Assembly: GCA_000004985.1 (NCBI GenBank)
Contig: GG738860.1
DNA: 64,000 bases
Source: Naegleria gruberi
Lineage: Eukaryota
Direction: 5' to 3' (one strand)
The notes under the pieces: generated by a model
What the model saw: only the letters and a program-made list of their open reading frames with translations
Database searches by the model: none
What the model was told of the DNA's origin: nothing
Made by a program: the position numbers and the translations under genes
Shown here: piece by piece, positions 2,373 through 14,830 of the stretch
Numbering within the stretch: the first letter of the stretch is position 1
Layout of the letters: each line of letters begins with the position of its first letter

Positions 2373-3641
2373 TTATAAGGATGTTTCTGCAATAATTCTA
2401 TCGAGACTGTGGGCGAAAGAATTCAAGGTAAAGTTATCGATCACTCTCTGTCTTGAACGTGTTCCATAGTTGGCTCTTTCTTGAGCGCTCATGGAAAAGA
2501 ATTGAACAATGTTGAGGCCAAAGTTTTCGATAATTTCATCCTCGTTGAGATTATCCATAACGGCCAATAGACCTGTCGATTCATGAACAATACTTTCCTT
2601 TGGTCCTCCACTTCTCAATGCACAAACACATCTTCCACAATACATGGCCTCAACTGGAACAATACCAAAATGTTCTCCCTGTGGAGTGTAGGCCACTACA
2701 GTGCAATATTTCAACAAGACATATCTCTCAATTTCATTAAATGATGGAACATAAATTGCATTCTCTTGGACATTGTACTTGGCTACCAATTGTTTCAATT
2801 CATCCAAAACTTGAATATTTTCAGGAACTCTTGGATCATAACCTCCAGCAAGAATGAGTAAGGCGTCTGGGAATCTAGGCTTGACATACTTGGCAAATGA
2901 GTGAACCAGCAAGGCAATATTCTTCTTCTTTTCAAATCTATTGATGGATACAACACTGAATTCACTGTCCATTATTCTCTTATAGAATGAACACTTTTCC
3001 AATTCTTCCTCAGATGGTTGAACATCGTAGGATGAAACATTGATTGGTGGATATAAAATTTCAACTTGCTTATTAGAGAGCTTTTTAAATGATTCATAGA
3101 AAATTTGTTTGGTAAATCCAGAATTTACACTAATAGAATGAGCCATTCCAGTTGTAATTTCCTCAAAATAATCGAATGGAATTCTATATAATTTCTTCAA
3201 TAATGACAAGTTACTGTCCCATCTCACCAACAATTTATCAGGAAAATGACAGTAAAATACAATTTTAGCCTTTGGAAATAATAATTTCAAGAGTGGAATA
3301 TGATAACTAATTTGATCAACAATAATCACATCATAATTTTCATGAGAATGATTCAAATACATTCTAATAGTACAATAAAACATTCTTAAAATTGCAAAGA
3401 AAATATGAAATAAACCAAATATTGTTCTCGGAAGAAAATCTCCATATGAAATTACATCCAAAGTTCCATCATTGGTTTCTGAGAAGGAATGTTTAGGATC
3501 GTGATGAGAGGTAAATATCGTAACCTTGTGTCCAATAACCTTTTTTAATCCAACAGCAGCATCCACAATCAATCGTTCAGCTCCTCCGATACCCAAGTCC
3601 GGATGAGTAAAGGCAATATTAAGTGATTTGTTCTTCTTCAT
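2373..3641 (-). CDS. ALG2: alpha-1,3/1,6-mannosyltransferase ALG2 (GT4)
   Basis: NIAFTHPDLGIGGAERLIVDAA, ...VFYCHFPDKLL..., RFEKKKNIALL... and EHFGIVPVEAM are near-collinear with yeast Alg2p. Start assigned to MKKNK (3641) by alignment with the yeast N-terminus. The track's longer ORF to 3683 reads into the retroelement TSD. Confidence 0.85.
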   Translation of the reverse strand: MKKNKSLNIAFTHPDLGIGGAERLIVDAAVGLKKVIGHKVTIFTSHHDPKHSFSETNDGTLDVISYGDFLPRTIFGLFHIFFAILRMFYCTIRMYLNHSHENYDVIIVDQISYHIPLLKLLFPKAKIVFYCHFPDKLLVRWDSNLSLLKKLYRIPFDYFEEITTGMAHSISVNSGFTKQIFYESFKKLSNKQVEILYPPINVSSYDVQPSEEELEKCSFYKRIMDSEFSVVSINRFEKKKNIALLVHSFAKYVKPRFPDALLILAGGYDPRVPENIQVLDELKQLVAKYNVQENAIYVPSFNEIERYVLLKYCTVVAYTPQGEHFGIVPVEAMYCGRCVCALRSGGPKESIVHESTGLLAVMDNLNEDEIIENFGLNIVQFFSMSAQERANYGTRSRQRVIDNFTLNSFAHSLDRIIAETSL

Positions 3642-3655
3642 TTTTTTTAAATTTG
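3640..3655. repeat. 16-bp target-site duplication, 5' copy (ATTTTTTTTAAATTTG)
   Basis: Identical 16-mer recurs at 6442..6457, flanking the RT/RNaseH element. Confidence 0.55.
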
Positions 3656-6441
3656 AGCTCAAACGAAAAGTCAACCCAACCAATCAGACTTCCAAATTCA
3701 CAGAAGAATCAACTCACTCCCAATACATAGACTCATCAAGGAAATCAATGTACTCACATTCGAATATTCAAATAATAATAAGCAACAAACACTAGATGAA
3801 CTGAATAAGAAGAAAGATGAACTGAAATACAAACAGAAGGAATTTTTTAAGAAAGAGAGAGATAGATGGCTACATATGATTAACAATACAAGTATTGGAT
3901 TTCTATATAGATTTGATGCAGATCTGAACACCAAGAATATCAATTGGAAAAATCTACCAGACAGCGTAAACAAAGATAGCACTCTCCAATTCTTCACACA
4001 GAAATTCAAGAAAGAATATGAAGAAATCAAAATCAAACTCCCAACATCAACAGTCAAAGAAGGTCCACAAGAGATCACAATTAACAAAGATGATATTCTA
4101 AGCACACTCAAGAGACTCAAATCTAAATCTACAGGCACAGACTTTATTACAAATGACTTACTCAAGGAAATGACAGAGACACAAGCAACACAATTAGCAA
4201 TAGAATTTAATAAGATGATTAGTGAAACAAAGGATATACCAATAATAATGAAAGAAGGTTGGATCAAATTAATCCCAAAGAAAGACTCTATTGTAACACA
4301 CAAAGACATTCGTCCTATCACAATAATGAGTACACTATACAGACTACTATTTAACATCATAGCAAGGAAAATAGGTAAATGGGCAAAAGATAACATCAAT
4401 ATTAGACAACAAGCATTCACATCTAACAGAGAAGTTAACAACCATATTCTAGTAATCCAAGCATTAAGAGTCAAATACAAGAAAACAAATGCATTTGTAA
4501 TCACCAACTTGGACATAGAAAATGCATATGACGGTGTAGAACATTGTGTCCTTAGATTAGCTATGAAACATTGTAAATTCCCACTAATGTATAACACAAT
4601 CACCCAAATTATAATAGATTACCAAATCGAGAATTGGAAAATACCTGGCACACCATCATTTAAAATTGAAGAAATAGGAACTCTTAATTTTGCTGATGAC
4701 TGCTCATTAGTAACACAACCCAACAAGAAACACAATACCAAACTCAAACAACTGAACAAATGGATAGGGAATCTCAAAATGAAAATCAATGCTTCTAAAT
4801 CAATAACTTCTGTCACACCGGAAAGAATAGCCCTTAAAGACTTCACAGTTAAGCTTGACGATACGTTAATACCAAGACAAACCAATCAAAGAACATTAGG
4901 AAACTACATCACAGAAGACCATCTCTTCACAAAAGAAATTGACAAAAGAGAAGCTAGAGTAACACAAATACTAAAAATACTTCCAATCCATTTGATAGAA
5001 CCAGAAAATCTCAAAAGAATCATAATGGGCAAGACAATTAGTAGTTTTATCCATCTAGCAAGAGGAAATTCAATTTCCAATCCTCGCCTACAAACAATTG
5101 ACTCAACAATTAGGGGTAACCTAAAAAGATCACTGAAGATCGATGCAAAGGTAAAACCATCCACAATGTATGCACAATTCGAAAGAAAAGGACTAGAAAT
5201 TCCAAACCTCGAATACATAGCCAACTCAATCCTTTGCAATAACTTAATCAACAAATTCCACTCAAGTAACCCACTTGTCAGAGAAGCAGTACAGTACGGA
5301 ATTAATAACTGTAACACGAACAAAACAAAACTACACAACATATTTGAAAAATTCCACTACATCCTAAAACAACAACACAAACTTACCACAACAATATGTA
5401 ACACCAATCATCAACTTCTGGAAAAGGAAAAAGATGAACAATACTCCTACTCAGAATTCACAATATGGACTGATGGATCCAAATCAGAAAACAAAGTAGG
5501 ATTCAGTATAATCATTCAGAACAACGAATTTACAAAAGGATACAAATACAAGCTCCACTCATACCACTCAAACAACATGGCTGAATTATCAGCAATTACA
5601 ACAGCACTACACATCATACCACCAAACAGCAATGCAAAGGTACTCACTGACAGTGAAATAGCAGTCAAAATAATTAACAACACAAATTACAAAGGTCAAT
5701 TTAAGCAAATCAAAGATGAAATTACCAACCTCATCAGCACTAAAAAACTTCAAGCATCCATCGAATGGACAAAAGCTCATACAGGAATAACAGATGGAAA
5801 TAACTACGCTGATAAGAAAGCCAAACAAGCCTCAAGAATAGGACATCGAATTGCACCCCAACATCTACTAACTCAAGGGCAATTAATTATCACCAATTCG
5901 AAAAAAGTTTGGAAAAGTAGAATCAAAGGAGTACTTAGTGAAAAGCTCTACAATCAAGGAACATCCGAACTCATCAACAGAACAAATCTCAATTACCTCA
6001 AAGAACATACCACCCCAGCTCACAAATACTCAATCTGGAGGCTCATGATAAATGGACACTTAAGAAGCCTCATAGTAGACAACCCACAATGCCCAACATG
6101 TAACAAAAACCTTGACACAGAACACCTCTTCATAGCATGCCCAGAAATGAATTCAGCTAGAAACTGGATGATTGAAGAAATCAAAAAAAATACCAATCTC
6201 GAACCAGTACTAAGCACAGAGAGGACAGAAATATTAACACCAAACTCATTCCAACTAAATATCTTTGATATTCTGACGGAACCTATTCAAGGTATTATCA
6301 AAGAACAATGGCCCAAGATACAAGGAGGCCTCTCACTTTTTGGAGGAAGAGTACAAAAACAATACAACAAAATCTTAAAAATTCAATAAGACGTTCCAAA
6401 TGGACGAACCCGTCGGGTTCATTCGATTAATAAACGTTTAA
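3656..6441 (+). mobile_element. 5'-truncated non-LTR (LINE) retrotransposon with RT + RNase H + C-terminal zinc knuckle
   Basis: ORF 3876..6389 carries RT motifs (RPITIMSTLYR, LDIENAYDGV, NFADDCSLV), an RNase H domain (IWTDGSKS, AELSAITTAL, TDSEIAV, WTKAHTGITDGNNYADKKAKQA) and a CPTC...HLFIACPE zinc knuckle. No AP-endonuclease domain, so it is 5'-truncated. Bounded by the 16-bp direct repeat. 3' end is ...AATAAACGTTTAA with no poly-A. Confidence 0.8.
3876..6389 (+). CDS. retrotransposon pol-like ORF2 (reverse transcriptase / RNase H)
   Basis: 837-aa ORF with RT and RNase H motifs as listed for the element. Confidence 0.85.
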   Translation: MINNTSIGFLYRFDADLNTKNINWKNLPDSVNKDSTLQFFTQKFKKEYEEIKIKLPTSTVKEGPQEITINKDDILSTLKRLKSKSTGTDFITNDLLKEMTETQATQLAIEFNKMISETKDIPIIMKEGWIKLIPKKDSIVTHKDIRPITIMSTLYRLLFNIIARKIGKWAKDNINIRQQAFTSNREVNNHILVIQALRVKYKKTNAFVITNLDIENAYDGVEHCVLRLAMKHCKFPLMYNTITQIIIDYQIENWKIPGTPSFKIEEIGTLNFADDCSLVTQPNKKHNTKLKQLNKWIGNLKMKINASKSITSVTPERIALKDFTVKLDDTLIPRQTNQRTLGNYITEDHLFTKEIDKREARVTQILKILPIHLIEPENLKRIIMGKTISSFIHLARGNSISNPRLQTIDSTIRGNLKRSLKIDAKVKPSTMYAQFERKGLEIPNLEYIANSILCNNLINKFHSSNPLVREAVQYGINNCNTNKTKLHNIFEKFHYILKQQHKLTTTICNTNHQLLEKEKDEQYSYSEFTIWTDGSKSENKVGFSIIIQNNEFTKGYKYKLHSYHSNNMAELSAITTALHIIPPNSNAKVLTDSEIAVKIINNTNYKGQFKQIKDEITNLISTKKLQASIEWTKAHTGITDGNNYADKKAKQASRIGHRIAPQHLLTQGQLIITNSKKVWKSRIKGVLSEKLYNQGTSELINRTNLNYLKEHTTPAHKYSIWRLMINGHLRSLIVDNPQCPTCNKNLDTEHLFIACPEMNSARNWMIEEIKKNTNLEPVLSTERTEILTPNSFQLNIFDILTEPIQGIIKEQWPKIQGGLSLFGGRVQKQYNKILKIQ

Positions 6442-6457
6442 ATTTTTTTTAAATTTG
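6442..6457. repeat. 16-bp target-site duplication, 3' copy
   Basis: Exact copy of 3640..3655. Confidence 0.55.
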
Positions 6458-7193: not shown

Positions 7194-7516
7194 GTATTGT
7201 TCAAATTGATTGACTTGAGAAGATTTTTCTTGATTGGAACGACATGAAGTGGAGAAGAATCGAAGATTTTTTAAGAAGAAATGCTCTTATGAGACAATGC
7301 TCGATAGATAGCAACGTGATGATTGCTTTTTATCATTTTTTTTTGAAATTGCAACAGATTAATTGTTGATAAGGCAACTCTATGGCAACTCAGTTTGATA
7401 TTACTCAACATCATTGAATGGATCACGCAAGAGTATATTGCGTCTATTTACAAAAGCACACATATTGTTGTTTTTGTAAAAAACTGTTCCCAGTTGAATT
7501 ATGTGTAACAGTGTTA

Positions 7517-7589
7517 GGGGATGTAGCTCACATGGTAGAGCGCTTCTTTAGCATGGAAGAGGTACGGGGATCGATACCCCGCATCTCCA
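7517..7589 (+). tRNA. tRNA-Ala(AGC): tRNA-Ala (anticodon AGC)
   Basis: Cloverleaf folds by hand. Acceptor GGGGATG/CATCTCC carries the G3:U70 Ala identity pair. D arm GCTC/GAGC. Anticodon loop TTAGCAT. T stem CGGGG/CCCCG. Position 54 appears to be A rather than T, which is unusual. Confidence 0.8.
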
Positions 7590-8754
7590 CTATCTTTTTA
7601 TTTAGTAAATGAATTCATTGTGATTGCAGATAGGTGCAATAAGGCTTAAACATATGGTGCCATACTTTTTCCAAGGAGAATACATGAAATGACTTTATGT
7701 AATGGAGTAAAACAAGTTAGAAAAATTAGAATATTGAGCTAATAACTTTGGAAATTAGTTTTCACTTATTTTGAATTGTAATATTATTGTTTTTCATTTT
7801 GTAATTTTGGACGGGAAGCCTGCCAGGAATATGGCGACAATCCCGCTACAGTCTTTGACTGTATGAACAGTGAAGGCAACTAATCTATTGATTGTTGGTT
7901 CAGTAAGTTATTGTTTAGAAAAGCTTGCTACGTGACCCTCTGTTTATCATCTTTGAATTTTATCTATTTAGAAAGAGAAACTTGTGGTTGATCAATAAAC
8001 GATCAAATTTCGAATTTGAGTCTTCAAATAATACTATTATTATTCAAAAGAAGACAAACACTACACTGAAGGAACGGTTGCTTGGCTAGTCATAATCTTC
8101 ATAATGTTATGATCAATTACCACATAAGGAAGGTGTTGTGATTTTTCTATTAATTGAAAAAAGAAGGAACATTCGTTAACAATTTTCTATGGATTTCTTG
8201 ATTAATAAAAAGAAAGTGTTGATAATGTTCTATTAATTGATAAAAAGTTAAGGTACCAATCTGCATGTTCACAAATCCCCCATTCACTAACCATGGCTGG
8301 TAAGGAATGCAGCAATCATCTATGAACGAGGAAACCTACAACGAAGCATGTTTCCAGTTCGATATCATGCTCAAGATATGTGACTACAGAGTCTTCATCT
8401 TGGTTAACCTCAAAGGTCAGATTGACTCAAAAAAGTCGAGTTTATGTATTCCTACAGAAAAGATCCTGTAGAAGTACAGTCAATGGTTTTAGCAATCTTG
8501 CATCCTCAATGATATTATATCGGTTTTGAAAGTGTGGATTGTTGTCAGGAAAAGTTATGGTAAAAAAATTCAATGAGAGATTCAAGAAAATATTTGAATG
8601 GACAGTATTCCAGTGAATTAGCACCTATTATTCTGATAACAAAGGAATCTCAACTTACTTCATTAACAATTCAGACTCGTTATTTCTGAAATAATAATAT
8701 TGAAACAATATGTGTTTTCATGAACAAAAGGAGAAATTTTAATACATTAGTATA

Positions 8755-8827
8755 GCTGGCGTAGCTCAGTCGGTAGAGCGTTGGTCTAATAAGCCATTGG
8801 TCGCCGGTTCGATCCCGTCCGTCAGCA
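8755..8827 (+). tRNA. tRNA-Ile(AAU): tRNA-Ile (anticodon AAT)
   Basis: Acceptor GCTGGCG/CGTCAGC. D arm GCTC-AGTCGGTA-GAGC. Anticodon loop CTAATAA. T arm GCCGG-TTCGATC-CCGTC. Confidence 0.8.
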
Positions 8828-8887
8828 TCTCTTTTGGCTTTTAAAAAAGGGAAGACATTCCACCCCATTCGAAACCCAAGTAAGATT

Positions 8888-8906
8888 ATTTTTTTTGGAA
8901 ACATTG
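8888..8906. repeat. 19-bp target-site duplication, 5' copy (ATTTTTTTTGGAAACATTG)
   Basis: Exact 19-mer repeated at 13758..13776. A G7 run of probably untemplated Gs follows immediately, typical of LINE 5' junctions. Confidence 0.7.
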
Positions 8907-8937
8907 GGGGGGCTTCAAAAAAATATTTTAAATCAGA

Positions 8938-9032
8938 AATGAATAACAACAAGAGACGAATTAATCGTCAAAAATTCACCAACCAGAATCTAAACAACAG
9001 GAACAACACTGGTAATAACAACAACAATATTA

Positions 9033-9077
<45 letters not shown>

Positions 9078-10252
9078 TAATTGTGAATAAACAATCAAAT
9101 AATAATAATACTACTAATAATAATAATAATAATAATAGTAATAATAGTACATCTAATAATGGTCCAAAATTAAATAGATACCAAACTAAACACAGAGTCA
9201 TCATTTGTAATTACGACCAAAATGAATCAATCAACAAATTGGCAAATTATTTAAAAATAAGTCCTAATAATGTATTCGGAATGAAGGTAGATAATAATTT
9301 GAAATTAGCTATATTATACTTTAGAAACAAACAACTAGCAGAAAATTGTATTAACAAAAATTCTAATCTTGCTATATGCCATCAAACTACTGTAACTGAA
9401 TTTAAATATAATATTAAATTAGAAATTAATGAAGAAAATATTAAAAAAGTTTGGACAGAATTTAATAATTCAGAAAACCATGACAATATGGGAGATGAAG
9501 CAGATAAACCAAATACTAAAATTATATCTATGAATATGGTAACATCTACTAAATATTGGTCAATCCACACCAACACCCTTGTTAGCGAAACATTAATGAA
9601 AAAATTGGAATTAACTAGAGACCTAGATAAATCAGTGTCTTTCGTTATTAATTTAGGAGATAATATTAATATTAGACATGATGAATTGGAAAAAACTATT
9701 GAAGAACAATGGAAAGTTAAACCAAGAGTAACTTGCTCCAATGATAAAAAAATGTTCGCTGTTGTCCCAATTAATCAATTAGCTACAGCCTCAATCACTA
9801 GAGAGATTTATTTTGAAAATCATATCCTCAAAAATCTATCCTATAGCTATTACAAAAAGAAAAGTTTTAAAATTAAATTTAAAAAAATGGAAGAAGAATT
9901 AAAAAATCGTACATTGGAAAATGAAGTTCTTACTGAAAGTTTGGACTATTTGGAAGATAAATTTGAAACTCTCAAAACGAACATCAAAGAGGATTTTACA
10001 TCTAGAATTACTTACCTAGAACAAGAAACAATTACCAAATCTATGCTGAAAGAAGAATTTGAATTAAATAATTCACAAATTTCAGTTCAATTTGATAAAC
10101 ATAAAATTGAGATGAAAGAATCTGTAACTAATCAACTAAAAGAAAATCATGATTCTATCATCAATCATATGAATATAACTATGAAACAAAATTTTGCGGG
10201 TTTATTTGAAGAATTTAGAAACCTAGGGGTACTTCCAACACCCAAACAATGA
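8938..10252 (+). CDS. LINE ORF1 protein (poly-Asn tract plus coiled-coil region)
   Basis: First Met inside the element. The track ORF begins at 8834 only by read-through of flanking DNA. C-terminal half is heptad-rich (KKMEEELKNRTLENEVLTESLDYLEDKFETLK...). Confidence 0.55.
9035..9076. repeat. (AAT)14 microsatellite encoding the poly-Asn tract in ORF1
   Basis: Perfect trinucleotide run read directly from the sequence. Confidence 0.9.
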
Positions 10253-10773
10253 GTCTAAATAATCATATTCAATTAGCTACATGTAATCTATCGTGTTTTA
10301 ATCTCTCAAAACAAACATGTTTGCTTAACAATATAGATAGACACAATCTGCACGTTATTGCAGTACAAGAGACTCACTGGGACATATCAAATAACGAACA
10401 ACTCAGATTAGCAACAAATTTATTTAACAATTGTTACGTATTTAATAGTTTCAAACAACCAAGTGACCATTTTGGAGGAATATTAACTCTAATTAGAAAA
10501 GACACTCAAATTAACCTCCTTTCATATGAAGAATTAATCAAAGGCCGATTAACAAATGTTAAAGTAGAACTTAACAACAAAACTATTAATTTTGTTAATT
10601 GGTATGGAAGAATTAAAATGGACAATATATATTTTGAAATTTTTAATATACTAACAGAACTAATTCAATATTGTATGGTACACAATGAATATTTATATAT
10701 ATTAGGTGATACAAATATGACAACAATACCAAGCACCAAATTTAGCAGACTTTCTCCAAAAGATAAAAACTAA
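10249..10773 (+). pseudogene. LINE ORF2 N-terminal AP-endonuclease segment, frame-disrupted
   Basis: Contains the APE motif HVIAVQETHW. Terminates at 10773, and the remaining APE C-terminus (RPDHII) continues in the next frame. Confidence 0.6.
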
Positions 10774-10796
10774 TACAATGGATAAGCGAATATAGG

Positions 10797-13706
10797 TTGT
10801 ATGATTTTAATTCAACAAACATTCAACCATCTTTCACACAATTCAATGGATCATCAGTATATGCTAAATCACGACCAGATCATATTATTGCTAATATTAA
10901 CAATCACATATCTAGTAAAGATATTGACACCTTTACTCAACATAACATAGTATGTGCTACTGTTGACCTACAATATGAACCAAAAACTTTCTCTCTACCA
11001 TTTACAAAAAATATATATAATTGGGAAAAAATTAAAGATAATATTGAAAATATTAAATTAAAAATTTTACAATCCAATTACAACACGGTAGAAGATATTC
11101 AAAATCATTTAATTACAATTTTACAAGAATTTACCTATCAAAAAAGAAAATCAAATAATGTAACAAATTGTAAAGAATATCAAGAATTATTCAAATTAAA
11201 AAACGATATTAACAAATATTATTTAAAAAAAAAGAAAAATTTAAATAAGAAAAGTATTGAATTATTTAATAATAATAACAACCCTTCCAGAGATGAAATC
11301 AAAGTTAAATTAGTAGAACTTGATGATAAAATGGATTCAGTTATTAAAGTTAAATTAAAGGAAAGAAAACAAGCATTCATTAATGAAGTTAATGATTTAA
11401 CAACGAAAAAACCATTTAGTTACCCATTTAGAAAAGAATCTAAACACTCATCTATCTTCAATGTAACTAACTCGGTCAATTTTGAAAAAGAAATAATAGA
11501 CCACTTTTCTAAAATGTTCAATACTGAACTCCCCAACTCTGACATTGAATTCACACATATAATTAATGATATCAACAATAATAATCAAATCAACCTATTC
11601 ACATCAGAATCATTATATGAAACAATCTCAAATACGAAAAATTCAATGGCAGGGTGGGATAATATACCCATAAAATTCCTGAAATTGTTAGATGAAGAAT
11701 GTATAGAAAAATTTGTAATTCCATTTAACAATATTCTTGAAGGAAAAACCCAAATACCACAATCATTCAAACAAGGTCTACTTCTTCCCCTTCCAAAAGT
11801 TAATAATCCTTCAAAATTGGGAAACTTTAGACCAATAGTGGTATTACCAACTCTATATAGAATTCTCTCTACTTTCATTAATTCTCAAATAATGAACATA
11901 ATTAACACTAATAATAATTTATTAAATGAATGTCAAAGAGGATTCTTGAAGAATAGTTCAACAACAGATAACCTATCAGTAGTGAAAACAGTATTGAATT
12001 CATACTTGAACAATAACAAATCAATATTCATTTCTACATTGGATATTAAAAATGCTTATGGTTCTGTAATTCACTCTAAACTGATAGATATTTTAGAAGC
12101 AAAAGGATTTGATAGTCATATATGTAACCTTGTGAAAGACATGATCACCAATCATAAAATTAAGATTCTTGCTAATAATTCAGTGTCAGCAGAATTTAAT
12201 TCAACACTTGGTGTTCCTCAAGGTGACCCTTCAAGCCCTATTCTCTTCAACCTATATTTCGATCTAATAACGCAAGTTATTAAAGAATTCAAAGGAATCT
12301 CATTTGGAGATATTAACGTGGTAATCTTATTATATGCTGATGATATAATTATTCTCAGTGAAACAGCATATGAAATGAATGCAATCCTAAAAAGATTAAC
12401 AGAAATAGGAAATCAAATTGGATTACATTTCGCAGAAGAAAAGTGTAAAGTAGTAGGTATCACACCTGCAGGTAACAGGTCAAAAGCAAAAATCTGGATG
12501 AATAATATTAATATTAATAACAAAAAACATGACTTGGAGTACCTTGGAGCCATTCTTAATGGTAGTAATTTCAACTGGAATACACCATCCAGTGTATTAG
12601 ATAAAATTACATTCAGAACTCAATCTTTCAAACCAAAAATGTTAAAACTAAACACTGCAAGAGTGGTGTTTCAATCTAAAGTAATATCAATCCCCAGATA
12701 CTTATGTAGTGTCGGTTGTTTCCCAAAATCTAAATTGGAGAAATTGGATAAATATATTTCAGGACAAATCAAAATGAAAATGGGATGGGATTGTAGACTG
12801 TCTAAAGCAGTAATGTATGGAGAAAAATCTATTGGGGGTCTAGGACTAATATCACCCTCAAATATTTACTATATAGAACAATGTGCTGCTTTATACAGAT
12901 TTGTTAACTCATCATCGTCTATTACTCGTTATGTGATGAGAAAAGCATTACTAGATGTGGAACAAGCATTAGACAGCAACAACTATTTAGAAGAATTTAT
13001 TTTAAATTTAATTAACAACAACTGGAATTGGATCGAACCAAGAAATCTAGATTCTTCAGAATGGATATTAATCAAGCAAAACAAAACTTCACCAGACATC
13101 AGGCAAGAATTACTAGCTCATCTTAGAAGTAAGATGACACCTAGCTTGATGGGCAATTTAGATAAAAATAACGAATGGCACAGATTGACATTAAATTTCT
13201 GGTCTAATCCAACACTTTCACTATACCAACAAAAGATATGCTTTGCAAACTTGCACAAAGCAATTAGAATCAATAATATTGATGACAAAGAACCAATTAT
13301 TTGTGAATCCTGTAATACCAGTGCAACTTGGGATCACATATTTTGGGAATGCTCTCGATGTATACACGAACGTACTGAATGTCAACGGTTATATGATGAA
13401 ATCTCACTCACCTATAACCTTAATAAGATTGAAATCAACACAACATCAAGCTCCCCATCAACTCTTACTTTCTCTCCAAATGGAATCATCTTAAAATCAA
13501 ATTACAAAATATGGAAAAAGAAAAAGATCGTTAAATCAGAAGTTCTAAATCAAATTTATAGAATTTACGTTCAATATGTTGAAAATTGTTACAAAAATTC
13601 TGATTGGAACTCAAAACTAGGTCCAAAAAGGAACTACTCTATCTCAACAAAACAAAAAAACCACCCTACATCATGGCAAATCCACCAACAACTAAGCCAA
13701 CGATAA
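10797..13706 (+). CDS. LINE ORF2 reverse-transcriptase segment with C-terminal CCHC-like zinc knuckle
   Basis: RT motifs 1-7 including YADD. No RNase H. Confidence 0.8.
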   Translation: MYDFNSTNIQPSFTQFNGSSVYAKSRPDHIIANINNHISSKDIDTFTQHNIVCATVDLQYEPKTFSLPFTKNIYNWEKIKDNIENIKLKILQSNYNTVEDIQNHLITILQEFTYQKRKSNNVTNCKEYQELFKLKNDINKYYLKKKKNLNKKSIELFNNNNNPSRDEIKVKLVELDDKMDSVIKVKLKERKQAFINEVNDLTTKKPFSYPFRKESKHSSIFNVTNSVNFEKEIIDHFSKMFNTELPNSDIEFTHIINDINNNNQINLFTSESLYETISNTKNSMAGWDNIPIKFLKLLDEECIEKFVIPFNNILEGKTQIPQSFKQGLLLPLPKVNNPSKLGNFRPIVVLPTLYRILSTFINSQIMNIINTNNNLLNECQRGFLKNSSTTDNLSVVKTVLNSYLNNNKSIFISTLDIKNAYGSVIHSKLIDILEAKGFDSHICNLVKDMITNHKIKILANNSVSAEFNSTLGVPQGDPSSPILFNLYFDLITQVIKEFKGISFGDINVVILLYADDIIILSETAYEMNAILKRLTEIGNQIGLHFAEEKCKVVGITPAGNRSKAKIWMNNININNKKHDLEYLGAILNGSNFNWNTPSSVLDKITFRTQSFKPKMLKLNTARVVFQSKVISIPRYLCSVGCFPKSKLEKLDKYISGQIKMKMGWDCRLSKAVMYGEKSIGGLGLISPSNIYYIEQCAALYRFVNSSSSITRYVMRKALLDVEQALDSNNYLEEFILNLINNNWNWIEPRNLDSSEWILIKQNKTSPDIRQELLAHLRSKMTPSLMGNLDKNNEWHRLTLNFWSNPTLSLYQQKICFANLHKAIRINNIDDKEPIICESCNTSATWDHIFWECSRCIHERTECQRLYDEISLTYNLNKIEINTTSSSPSTLTFSPNGIILKSNYKIWKKKKIVKSEVLNQIYRIYVQYVENCYKNSDWNSKLGPKRNYSISTKQKNHPTSWQIHQQLSQR

Positions 13707-13757
13707 CTTCATAGTCAGAACCGTACCGGTTCTAACTACCAAATAAACAAACCCTAC

Positions 13758-13776
13758 ATTTTTTTTGGAAACATTG
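13758..13776. repeat. 19-bp target-site duplication, 3' copy
   Basis: Exact copy of 8888..8906. Confidence 0.7.
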
Positions 13777-13852
13777 AAAAAATTTACAATTTAATGAACT
13801 CGAATTTAAGAACATACAACCACTATAACAACAAAAAAACAACTGATTATCA

Positions 13853-14497: not shown

Positions 14498-14830
14498 ATG
14501 AATAACAACAACAGATTAGTAGGAGAACAAGATTTAAACCCACTATCTGGTAGTTTTAGACCCATCAATAGTAATGGCCCTACCCCAATGAATGGTGGAA
14601 TTGGTGGAAATCAAGTTGGTCCAAATAACCCAATCTTTAATCCAAACATTCCATATTCAGCACCACCTATTAGACCTCAAATTCTTCCAGGTTCTAGATT
14701 TGATCCAATCAATCCAACAATTGGACCATTTGGAGGTGGTGGCAATGGAGGAGGAAATACTTCATCCTCATTTGGTAATATTAATCCTAGTCATCACAAA
14801 CCTCCACAATTTGAAGATGAGGATTTTTAA
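14498..14830 (+). CDS. small Pro/Gly/Asn-rich protein with a PI31-like C-terminal motif
   Basis: A-rich start context. ...ILPGSRFDPINPTIGPFGGG...PPQFEDEDF resembles the PGARFDPFGPIG proline-rich C-terminal tail of the proteasome inhibitor PI31, as I recall that protein family. Confidence 0.4.
   Translation: MNNNNRLVGEQDLNPLSGSFRPINSNGPTPMNGGIGGNQVGPNNPIFNPNIPYSAPPIRPQILPGSRFDPINPTIGPFGGGGNGGGNTSSSFGNINPSHHKPPQFEDEDF

Follow-up and report, generated by a model that had tools for sequence, protein, structure and literature searches.

A LINE lies just downstream of a tRNA-Ile gene in Naegleria gruberi, on the same strand as the gene, and the question that this locus raises is whether the element was directed to the tRNA gene or reached its position by another route. 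We addressed this question in a window of 64,000 nucleotides from contig GG738860.1 (assembly GCA_000004985.1), which is the whole stretch of DNA that was analysed; its GC content is 33%, and its intergenic DNA is AT-rich. The first-pass annotation had treated the host as fungal, which is wrong: the organism is N. gruberi, and three ORFs of the window exactly match EFC46027.1, EFC46158.1 and EFC46157.1. To our knowledge, targeting of the region downstream of tRNA genes by non-LTR retrotransposons has been reported so far only in dictyostelids, and our literature search found no link between Naegleria LINEs and tRNA genes. Our analysis indicates, with a probability of about 70%, that the locus holds a recent insertion of an APE-type LINE of N. 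gruberi, a copy disabled by a frameshift, and that a preference for T-runs, and not recognition of the tRNA, placed it there.

The reported geometry of the locus is correct, since the LINE starts 79 bp beyond the end of tRNA-Ile in the same orientation, with its target site 61 bp beyond that end. The coordinates of the features are compiled in the table below. The 19-mer that brackets the element occurs exactly twice in the window, and a pair of matches appeared in 0/100 shuffles. The bases that flank its two copies differ (T/C upstream, G/A downstream), which marks the duplication as a separate unit of 19 bp and not a piece of some longer repeat; its perfect conservation supports the proposal that the insertion is young. 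An empty-site allele, as it was before the insertion, would read ...GTAAGATTATTTTTTTTGGAAACATTGAAAAAATTTAC.... The 4,851 bp between the copies do correspond to a LINE with ORF1, an endonuclease domain, an RT domain and a CCHC motif, and its 3' terminus, ...AATAAACAAACCCTAC, directly abuts the duplication, which confirms the absence of a poly-A tail. The opening run of seven Gs, previously taken as an untemplated addition, has to be amended: a G-run is present, but its first G (8906) belongs to the duplication, so that the element opens with G6, and the run is not simply untemplated G, as G2-G6 followed by (N)yTTCrAAAAAAT is a 5' end conserved family-wide (the G-run plus CTTCAAAAAAAT in the relatives). 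Judging from their sequence and place, the two T4 runs directly past tRNA-Ile are likely its primary Pol III terminator.

Features of the tRNA-Ile locus and of the second LINE, in window coordinates
Feature	Position	Strand	Remarks
16-bp duplication ATTTTTTTTAAATTTG	3640-3655 and 6442-6457		Round the second LINE
Second LINE, 5'-truncated	3656..6441	+	RT, RNase H and CCHC; different family, unrelated to the first LINE
tRNA-Ala (AGC)	7517..7590	+	ARAGORN and Rfam
U3 snoRNA gene	8255..8483	-	Rfam RF00012, 79.3 bits; between tRNA-Ala and tRNA-Ile
tRNA-Ile, anticodon AAT	8755..8827	+	ARAGORN; Rfam tRNA, 59.9 bits
Two T4 runs	8832..8842	+	8832-8835 and 8839-8842; directly past tRNA-Ile, read from sequence
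19-bp duplication ATTTTTTTTGGAAACATTG, 5' copy	8888..8906	+	Begins A+T8
First LINE, 4,851 bp	8907..13757	+	Ends set by the duplication; both termini conserved in relatives
5' UTR, 32 nt	8907..8938	+	GGGGGGCTTCAAAAAAAT...
ORF1, 437 aa	8939..10252	+	N-terminal poly-Asn tract; no Pfam family
ORF2, first part	10249..10773	+	AP-type endonuclease; ends at premature stop
A5 run	10765..10769	+	ORF2 frame shifts by -1 (GAT AAA AAC TAA); uninterrupted in relatives
ORF2, remainder	10767..13706	+	End of endonuclease domain (SRPDH), RT, Cys/His motif
RT domain	about 11802-12554	+	Pfam RVT_1, E 1e-36; YADD at 12333-12344
C-x2-C-x7-H-x4-C (CCHC) motif	13302-13352	+	Within ORF2
3' UTR, 51 nt	13707..13757	+	Stem-loop 13713-13737; AATAAA 13742-13747; ends ...CCCTAC without poly-A
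19-bp duplication, 3' copy	13758..13776	+	

The element is an APE-type non-LTR retrotransposon (LINE), in which the endonuclease is followed by the RT within ORF2. As is general for LINEs, it has no LTRs, the duplicated target varies in sequence, and 5'-truncated copies exist (L001, the second LINE of the window and, apparently, L017). ORF1 is 68% identical to P0060; it matches no Pfam family at E <= 0.01, the Transposase_22 of L1 included, and no CCHC knuckle is visible in it. The stop codon of ORF1 and the start codon of ORF2 overlap as ATGA, with ORF2 in the -1 frame relative to ORF1. The endonuclease region matches Pfam Exo_endo_phos at an E value of 4e-4, which misses the curated cut-off. 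It can nevertheless be aligned with the EN domains of three relatives that carry PF03372 (P0001, P0002 and P0004), and it retains the QETH, GDxN and SRPDH motifs. The stem-loop of the 3' UTR folds at -11.7 kcal/mol (z -4.4; 0/200 shuffles equally good), and the last 57 nt are identical to those of L001 at 56 positions, the ORF2 DNA of the two elements being 69% identical.

The copy had been described as intact, which does not strictly hold. The first frame of ORF2 terminates at the stop codon at 10771-10773, after the A5 run, and this 1-bp frame change splits the endonuclease part. Adding one A to the run gives an ORF2 of 1,152 aa that is colinear with those of the relatives, and the frame change would most simply be a 1-bp deletion. 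Programmed -1 frameshifting at GAT AAA AAC TAA was also considered, and it is disfavoured because ORF2 is read continuously through this site in all relatives.

Relatives of ORF2 belong only to Naegleria, Willaertia and unassigned contigs (E between 0 and 1e-77); after a gap, the next database matches start at E 1e-27 and are mostly Exo_endo_phos_2 proteins, with or without RNase H. No dictyostelid protein is among the ORF2 database matches. Dictyostelium TRE3, a first identity suggested by the poly-Asn tract and the AT-richness, was ruled out by the N. gruberi protein matches and the heterolobosean relatives of ORF2. Neither ORF1 and ORF2 nor the second LINE's ORF has a match among N. gruberi proteins, so the elements are evidently unannotated in this species. 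A single-protein metagenome scan gave no matches, and an alignment-based one yielded nothing but LINEs from other clades (21-29% identical). When the masked window was searched for further copies or fragments by blastn and tblastn, only low-complexity matches appeared; an 18-nt exact match beside tRNA-Ser (E 0.02) was treated as chance.

We define here a heterolobosean T-run LINE lineage, whose members have the 5' end (G)2-6 N yTTCrAAAAAAT, a target that begins (A)T5-10, and a 3' end composed of a hairpin, AATAAA(C) and 6-12 nt with no A tail; the first LINE fits this description at both ends and in its target. The same lineage includes FDP41_006562 of N. fowleri and C9374_011797 of N. lovaniensis (ORF2 35-37% identical over 98% of its length), as well as the shorter ABK040_011805 of W. 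magna (36% over 50%). The loci of these three share the 5' end (G)nNyTTCrAAAAAATG and the T-run target, with duplications of 18-20 bp; they are diverged and represent different families, these copies are not near tRNA genes, and their annotation goes no further than hypothetical or reverse-transcriptase-domain protein. The element of the window is an ordinary one, which adds a member to an already known sort of element.

A second retroelement had been noted near tRNA-Ala. It exists, with its 3' end at 6441, which is 1,075 bp ahead of that gene, but the proximity is not mechanistic: the element occupies a T8 run where a glycosyltransferase gene has its start codon, and a further gene separates it from tRNA-Ala. 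Neither LTRs nor inverted repeats were found round it; it is a truncated LINE, to which a full-length relative, P0061, is 94% identical. The second LINE has the same T-run target, the same hairpin and the same AATAAAC 3' end as the first LINE. Before the insertions, the two target sites were 2,446 bp apart and flanked the cluster of tRNA-Ala, U3 and tRNA-Ile; the chance of such a spacing among long T-run sites is about 0.08.

The insertion sites of the relatives point to a common target. Our sample comprised 12 further sites, belonging to this family and to a second LINE family of Naegleria, from N. fowleri, N. lovaniensis, Willaertia magna and other assemblies. At every readable junction (13 sites, at least four species) the target begins (A)T5-10, the A being missing in one case. 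Seven insertions have a duplication of 15-20 bp that was confirmed at either end: the first and second LINEs of the window (19 and 16 bp), L002 and L018 of N. fowleri (20 and 17 bp), L003 and L017 of N. lovaniensis (18 and 15 bp) and L005 of W. magna (18 bp). All seven start with T5-10, and six have an A before the T-run. The one-sided junctions of L001, L004, L015, L016 and L019 likewise show A+T6-10; for L001 only the 3' junction was used because no target duplication was found. The length of the T-run is equal within each pair of duplications and varies among insertions, and therefore the run belongs to the target and is not brought in by the element. The 59-kb empty-site window has 159 sites of the type A+T>=5 over its two strands, about 0.13% of positions. 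Five of the 13 sites lie in an A-run leader immediately before the ATG of a gene; the second LINE is at a start codon, as are four copies elsewhere that have no small-RNA gene nearby.

Proximity to tRNA genes was tested on the loci of the relatives, the other copies of the family in N. gruberi not being among them. Within 150 bp of a tRNA we found the window copy and none of the 12 other sites. There is no tRNA within 10 kb of L002, L003, L017 and L018; the 162-bp upstream flank of L015, the closest relative with a 5' end, holds a protein-coding start and no tRNA, and the flanks of L001 hold none either. L004 and L005 have their nearest tRNA 0.3 and 1 kb away, in the opposite orientation; a part of L004 that resembles a tRNA (about 4727-4815) was discarded, as Rfam gave no match to it at a threshold as loose as E <= 1. 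In total, a tRNA lies within 1 kb at 3/13 sampled sites, a proportion that may exceed background. The proposed tRNA-directed integration, drawn from one copy and repeated at 0/12 related sites within 150 bp, thus finds no support. The T-run target is common to all readable sites and by itself explains the position and orientation of the element near tRNA-Ile, so this adjacency is most likely due to the T-run insertion of the family and not to the seeking of tRNA genes.

T-runs follow Pol III genes on the sense strand of the gene, and therefore an element that seeks T-runs will sometimes land downstream of a tRNA and in the same orientation. Such a landing would need no recognition of the Pol III machinery. 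With the target on the sense strand of the element, the endonuclease would nick the other strand immediately 3' of 5'-A(n)T-3', and reverse transcription would be primed at this nick. The RT would recognise the 3' end of the element itself, with the conserved hairpin, AAUAAAC and about 6-12 nt, and not poly-A, and a second nick 15-20 bp away would yield the duplication. In the window copy, the run used was the T8 that lies 61 bp past tRNA-Ile on the sense strand of this gene. Because Pol III terminators are T-runs, a simple preference for a sequence can in this way pass for tRNA targeting.

We consider it improbable that the element actively targets tRNA genes as TRE3 does, with the T-run serving just as the local cleavage site. 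The window copy does lie inside the 40-150 bp range of TRE3 and in the same orientation (PMC5911963), a random A+T-run site would lie no more than 150 bp downstream of a tRNA in just 4-6% of cases even in this tRNA-rich window, and a tRNA is also present 0.3-1 kb from L004 and L005. However, this is a single copy that was flagged for its tRNA neighbour, and the tRNAs of L004 and L005 are at the wrong distance and in the wrong orientation. The closest relatives, L015 and L001, are not flanked by a tRNA, the N. fowleri and N. lovaniensis copies lie more than 10 kb from any, and no LINE remnants were found by blastn and tblastn at the other three tRNA genes of the window. Just as doubtful is the broader proposition that N. 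gruberi LINEs prefer Pol III small-RNA genes, one family inserting 40-150 bp downstream of tRNAs, as a trait of convergent origin in Heterolobosea (Discoba). If tRNA targeting were true, a third eukaryotic supergroup would show convergent "safe-haven" integration at Pol III genes.

A regional hot spot or safe haven, where LINEs gather round small-RNA clusters owing to open chromatin or tolerance and with no distance rule, would fit the presence of two different LINE families on either side of one such cluster. Transposable elements reportedly account for just 0.28% of this species' DNA (bioRxiv 10.64898/2026.06.24.734286), and the short spacing of the two target sites may therefore reflect some regional preference. 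We nevertheless hold this reading to be slightly less probable still, given the chance value of that spacing, the start-codon position of the second LINE, shared with the four copies away from small-RNA genes, and the four relatives with no tRNA within 10 kb. That the insertion was random within intergenic DNA, with T-run and tRNA both coincidental, is very improbable: the AT-richness of this DNA would favour it, but it is contradicted by 13 sites that begin with a motif found at so few positions. The preference for T-runs is the reading that we retain.

Our results document a lineage of heterolobosean LINEs that has defined termini, no poly-A, a 3' hairpin that is conserved and has a putative role in recognition, and a strict T-run target, which often puts insertions head-to-head with a gene, 15-20 bp before its start codon. 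They also aid the annotation of Naegleria genomes, in which these elements are unannotated (N. gruberi) or appear as "hypothetical protein" (N. fowleri).

Among known systems, the human and mammalian L1 resembles the Naegleria LINEs in its APE, RT and C-terminal Cys/His motif, its nick site in an A/T homopolymer, and its TPRT signature of variable 5' truncation (seen in the relatives) and duplications of about 15-20 bp. In contrast, L1 nicks 5'-TTTT/AA-3' and primes on poly-A, whereas the Naegleria nick would follow 5'-A(n)T-3' with no poly-A, and an ORF1 of the L1 clade is of the Transposase_22 type (coiled coil-RRM-CTD) or carries zinc knuckles (type I), neither of which is seen in the window element. 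The original label "L1-like" is therefore not demonstrable, as ORF1 has no L1-type domain, poly-A is absent and the target polarity is opposite. In a PDB sequence search, the RT scored better with R2 proteins (E 1e-36 to 1e-24) than with human L1 ORF2p (2e-15).

Zorro3 of Candida albicans, a LINE of the L1 clade whose integration takes place at poly-A tracts and is biased to promoter regions, shares with the Naegleria LINEs the A/T-homopolymer target, the insertions near coding regions or promoters, and the compact genome of the host (PMC3956500). It has a sense-strand poly-A flank, a short poly-A tail, no clear duplication and an ORF1 with zinc knuckles, whereas the Naegleria LINEs have a sense-strand T-run, no A tail and clean duplications of 15-20 bp, and the ORF1 of the window element has no knuckles. 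The closest parallel in layout is TRE3 of Dictyostelium (TRE3-A/Tdd-3), a two-ORF APE-RT-zinc-finger LINE of a compact protist genome, with ORF2 placed in the -1 frame with respect to ORF1 and insertions that lie 40-150 bp downstream from tRNA genes and share their orientation, as in the window copy (PMC5911963, PMC5006619). Its host is amoebozoan, whereas Naegleria is heterolobosean, and its 3' end is oligo(A), whereas that of the Naegleria family is hairpin-AATAAAC-N6-12; and TRE3 always adjoins tRNA genes, while the 12 related sites of Naegleria and Willaertia do not.

The window copy is a real, young and nearly intact LINE with a perfect target-site duplication. The window holds exactly two copies of the 19-mer ATTTTTTTTGGAAACATTG, and two matches appeared in none of 100 dinucleotide-preserving shuffles. 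Because the neighbouring bases on both sides differ between the two copies, the 19-mer is a discrete duplication outside any longer repeat, a possibility that the first-pass annotation had raised against its own reading of a 4.85-kb bracketed element. That reading stands, as do the absence of a terminal poly-A and the recent insertion, since the duplication is perfect. The G-run said to open the element as G7 is present, but the duplication already includes its first G (8906), which leaves G6 as the start of the element. The start of ORF2 overlaps the stop of ORF1 (ATGA), and ORF2 contains an AP-endonuclease region, a reverse transcriptase (RT) domain (RVT_1, E 1e-36) and a C-x2-C-x7-H-x4-C motif. 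Coordinates are compiled in the table.

Features of the window LINE, its surroundings and the insertion sites of its relatives
Feature	Position	Strand	Size	Details
Window LINE (element 1)	8907-13757	+	4,851 bp	between the 19-mer copies
19-mer copies	8888-8906, 13758-13776		19 bp	
Leader			32 nt	
ORF1	8939-10252		437 aa	contains poly-Asn tract
3' UTR			51 nt	without A tail
tRNA-Ile(AAT)	8755-8827	+		ARAGORN and Rfam agree
U3 snoRNA gene	8255-8483	-		Rfam RF00012, 79 bits
Second LINE (element 2)	3656-6441			5'-truncated; RT, RNase H, CCHC
Element 2 duplication	3640-3655, 6442-6457		16 bp	ATTTTTTTTAAATTTG, perfect; start-codon insertion at 3640
Glycosyltransferase gene	2373-3642	-		
L002 (N. fowleri), duplication			20 bp	ATTTTTTGGAATTGGAAATT; start-codon insertion at 8762-8782
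L003 (N. lovaniensis), duplication			18 bp	ATTTTTCTTTTTGATGAG
L005 (W. magna), duplication			18 bp	ATTTTTTTTTCGCAATTT
L005, tRNA-Leu	14635-14714	-		intact
L005, tRNA-Leu 3' half	~14517-14560			degenerate partial copy
L001, one-sided junction				...CACTAC/ATTTTTTATTG
L004, one-sided junction				...CCCCTA/ATTTTTTTTG
L015, one-sided junction				ATTTTTTTATATTCAAATC/GGGGGACTTC; start-codon insertion at 161-181
L016 (element 2 relative)				start-codon insertion at 396-415
L017 (N. lovaniensis, element 2 relative), duplication			15 bp	TTTTTTTGTTCTATT
L018 (N. fowleri, element 2 relative), duplication			17 bp	ATTTTTTTTTGATATTA; start-codon insertion at 7370-7387

Before the insertion, the tRNA-Ile gene and the ATG (13853) of the following + strand ORF were only about 155 bp apart (8828-8887 and 13777-13852); the LINE now lies 76 bp upstream of that ATG and probably displaced any promoter present there.

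The element had been called intact; its catalytic motifs (QETH, GDTN, SRPDH, YADD) are indeed kept, but ORF2 is broken by a 1-bp frame change at an A5 run. The endonuclease frame stops at 10771-10773, the remainder lies in the -1 frame from 10767, and one A added to the run (10765-10769) yields a 1,152-aa protein colinear with ORF2 in all relatives, where it is unbroken (...FSRLSPKDKKLIQWISEYRLYDF versus ...FSNLTTKDKTLREWLNSHKLYDF). The copy is thus one mutation short of intact. A programmed -1 frameshift, which the near-slippery heptamer within GAT AAA AAC TAA (10762-10773), with a stop immediately after it, would suggest, is disfavoured, given that ORF2 is continuous in the relatives.

Three long window ORFs are identical to N. 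gruberi EFC46027.1, EFC46158.1 and EFC46157.1, which share a 536,960-bp scaffold, so the host is a heterolobosean amoeboflagellate and not a fungus as first supposed; the GC content of the window is 33%. A search of ORF2 against 5.8 billion proteins returned eight strong relatives, after which the E values jump from 1e-77 to 1e-27. They include a protein with 63% identity from assembly GCA_050043615.1 (short contig), N. fowleri FDP41_006562, N. lovaniensis C9374_011797 and Willaertia magna ABK040_011805, and the others come from metagenome or Logan contigs. The matches included no N. gruberi protein, so the LINE is unannotated in its own genome. ORF1 matches no Pfam family, and its sole relative (P0060, 68% identity) comes from GCA_050043615.1. 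The L1-like label is not supported by these sequence comparisons: the RT scores much better with R2 proteins (E 1e-36 to 1e-24 against solved structures) than with human L1 ORF2p (2e-15), and both a poly-A tail and an L1-type ORF1 are lacking.

The second retroelement of the window was also found, and proved to be a LINE of a different family (RT 22% identical to element 1), with a 3' hairpin and AATAAAC as in element 1. A full-length relative 94% identical to it (P0061; 1,227 aa, endonuclease domain included) is encoded on a metagenome contig (L016).

The genomic loci of the relatives were fetched and their insertion ends read. At every readable junction (13 insertion sites, at least four species) the target begins with T5-10, preceded by A in all but one; among these, L016 and L019, both relatives of element 2, show A+T7-10 at the junctions present. 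The T-run is equal in length in the two copies of one duplication and differs between insertions, which identifies it as target and not element sequence. Such A+T-run sites are rare: the 59-kb window, reconstructed in its empty state, has 159 across its two strands.

This conserved T-run target best explains the position of the window LINE next to tRNA-Ile. Of the A+T-run sites in this tRNA-rich window, 4-6% fall at most 150 bp downstream of a tRNA gene, so adjacency is unremarkable for a T-run-seeking element, and the shared orientation follows from Pol III terminators being T-runs on the tRNA sense strand. Integration directed by tRNA genes, as originally proposed, was tested by proxy, on the insertion sites of relatives in place of other N. 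gruberi copies of the family. No tRNA gene lies within 150 bp at any of the other 12 sites, and four (L002, L003, L017, L018) have none within 10 kb on either side. L015 carries the complete 5' end of the closest relative, and its 162-bp upstream flank holds the start of a protein-coding ORF and no tRNA gene. A tRNA-Gln gene is located about 300 bp from the 3' end of L004, and a tRNA-Leu gene 1 kb from L005; both have the opposite orientation. At L005, the degenerate tRNA-Leu copy and the intact gene are about 75 bp apart. The T-runs just downstream of the other three window tRNA genes are free, with no LINE remnants.

Genuine tRNA targeting by this family, for which the resemblance of the window copy to the dictyostelid downstream profile speaks, is therefore unlikely in view of the 12 other sites. 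A looser regional preference of LINEs, which we regard as slightly less likely still, would draw on the U3 snoRNA gene between tRNA-Ala and tRNA-Ile: these form a small-RNA gene cluster with LINE insertions on either side, 2,446 bp apart before insertion, in a genome with a reported TE share of only 0.28% (bioRxiv 10.64898/2026.06.24.734286). Some probability is kept for both because of that share and the roughly 8% chance of such spacing among long T-run sites.

The T-run target also accounts for insertions at start codons. Five of the 13 fall on CAT+T(n), where an opposite-strand gene has its A-run leader and ATG (AAAAAAAT^G), including the CAT+T8 context of the glycosyltransferase gene hit by element 2. 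Such events are expected from the target preference, as C precedes 9 of the 14 A+T>=8 sites in the window. Naegleria LINEs thus repeatedly insert head-to-head, 15-20 bp before start codons, and only those 15-20 bp of original upstream sequence are left beside each gene.

All full-length copies share the 5' end (G)2-6-N-yTTC-r-AAAAAAT, and all end in AATAAA(C) followed by 6-12 nt without an A tail. A stable stem-loop lies 5' of AATAAA (z -4.4 in N. gruberi, -3.9 in L001, -4.8 in W. magna), with 0 of 200 shuffles folding as well in each case. The last 57 nt (hairpin, AATAAAC and tail) of the window LINE (13701-13757) and L001 (4182-4238), the relative from assembly GCA_050043615.1, are identical at 56 positions, versus just 69% for ORF2 DNA and 63% for protein. 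The 3' end is constrained much more strongly than the proteins, which points to a putative cis-acting 3' recognition element. From these sequences we infer that the opposite strand would be nicked right after 5'-A(n)T-3', that target-primed reverse transcription would start from the structured 3' end, and that a second nick would fall 15-20 bp away; the hairpin's role and the form of the RNA 3' end are likewise presumed.

Downstream tRNA targeting is reported only in dictyostelids (PMC5911963, PMC5006619), whose LINEs the window copy matches in profile. Insertion at homopolymer tracts near gene starts recalls Candida Zorro3, an element with a promoter bias whose integration sites are poly-A tracts (PMC3956500), although the Naegleria LINEs have the opposite polarity and no A tail.
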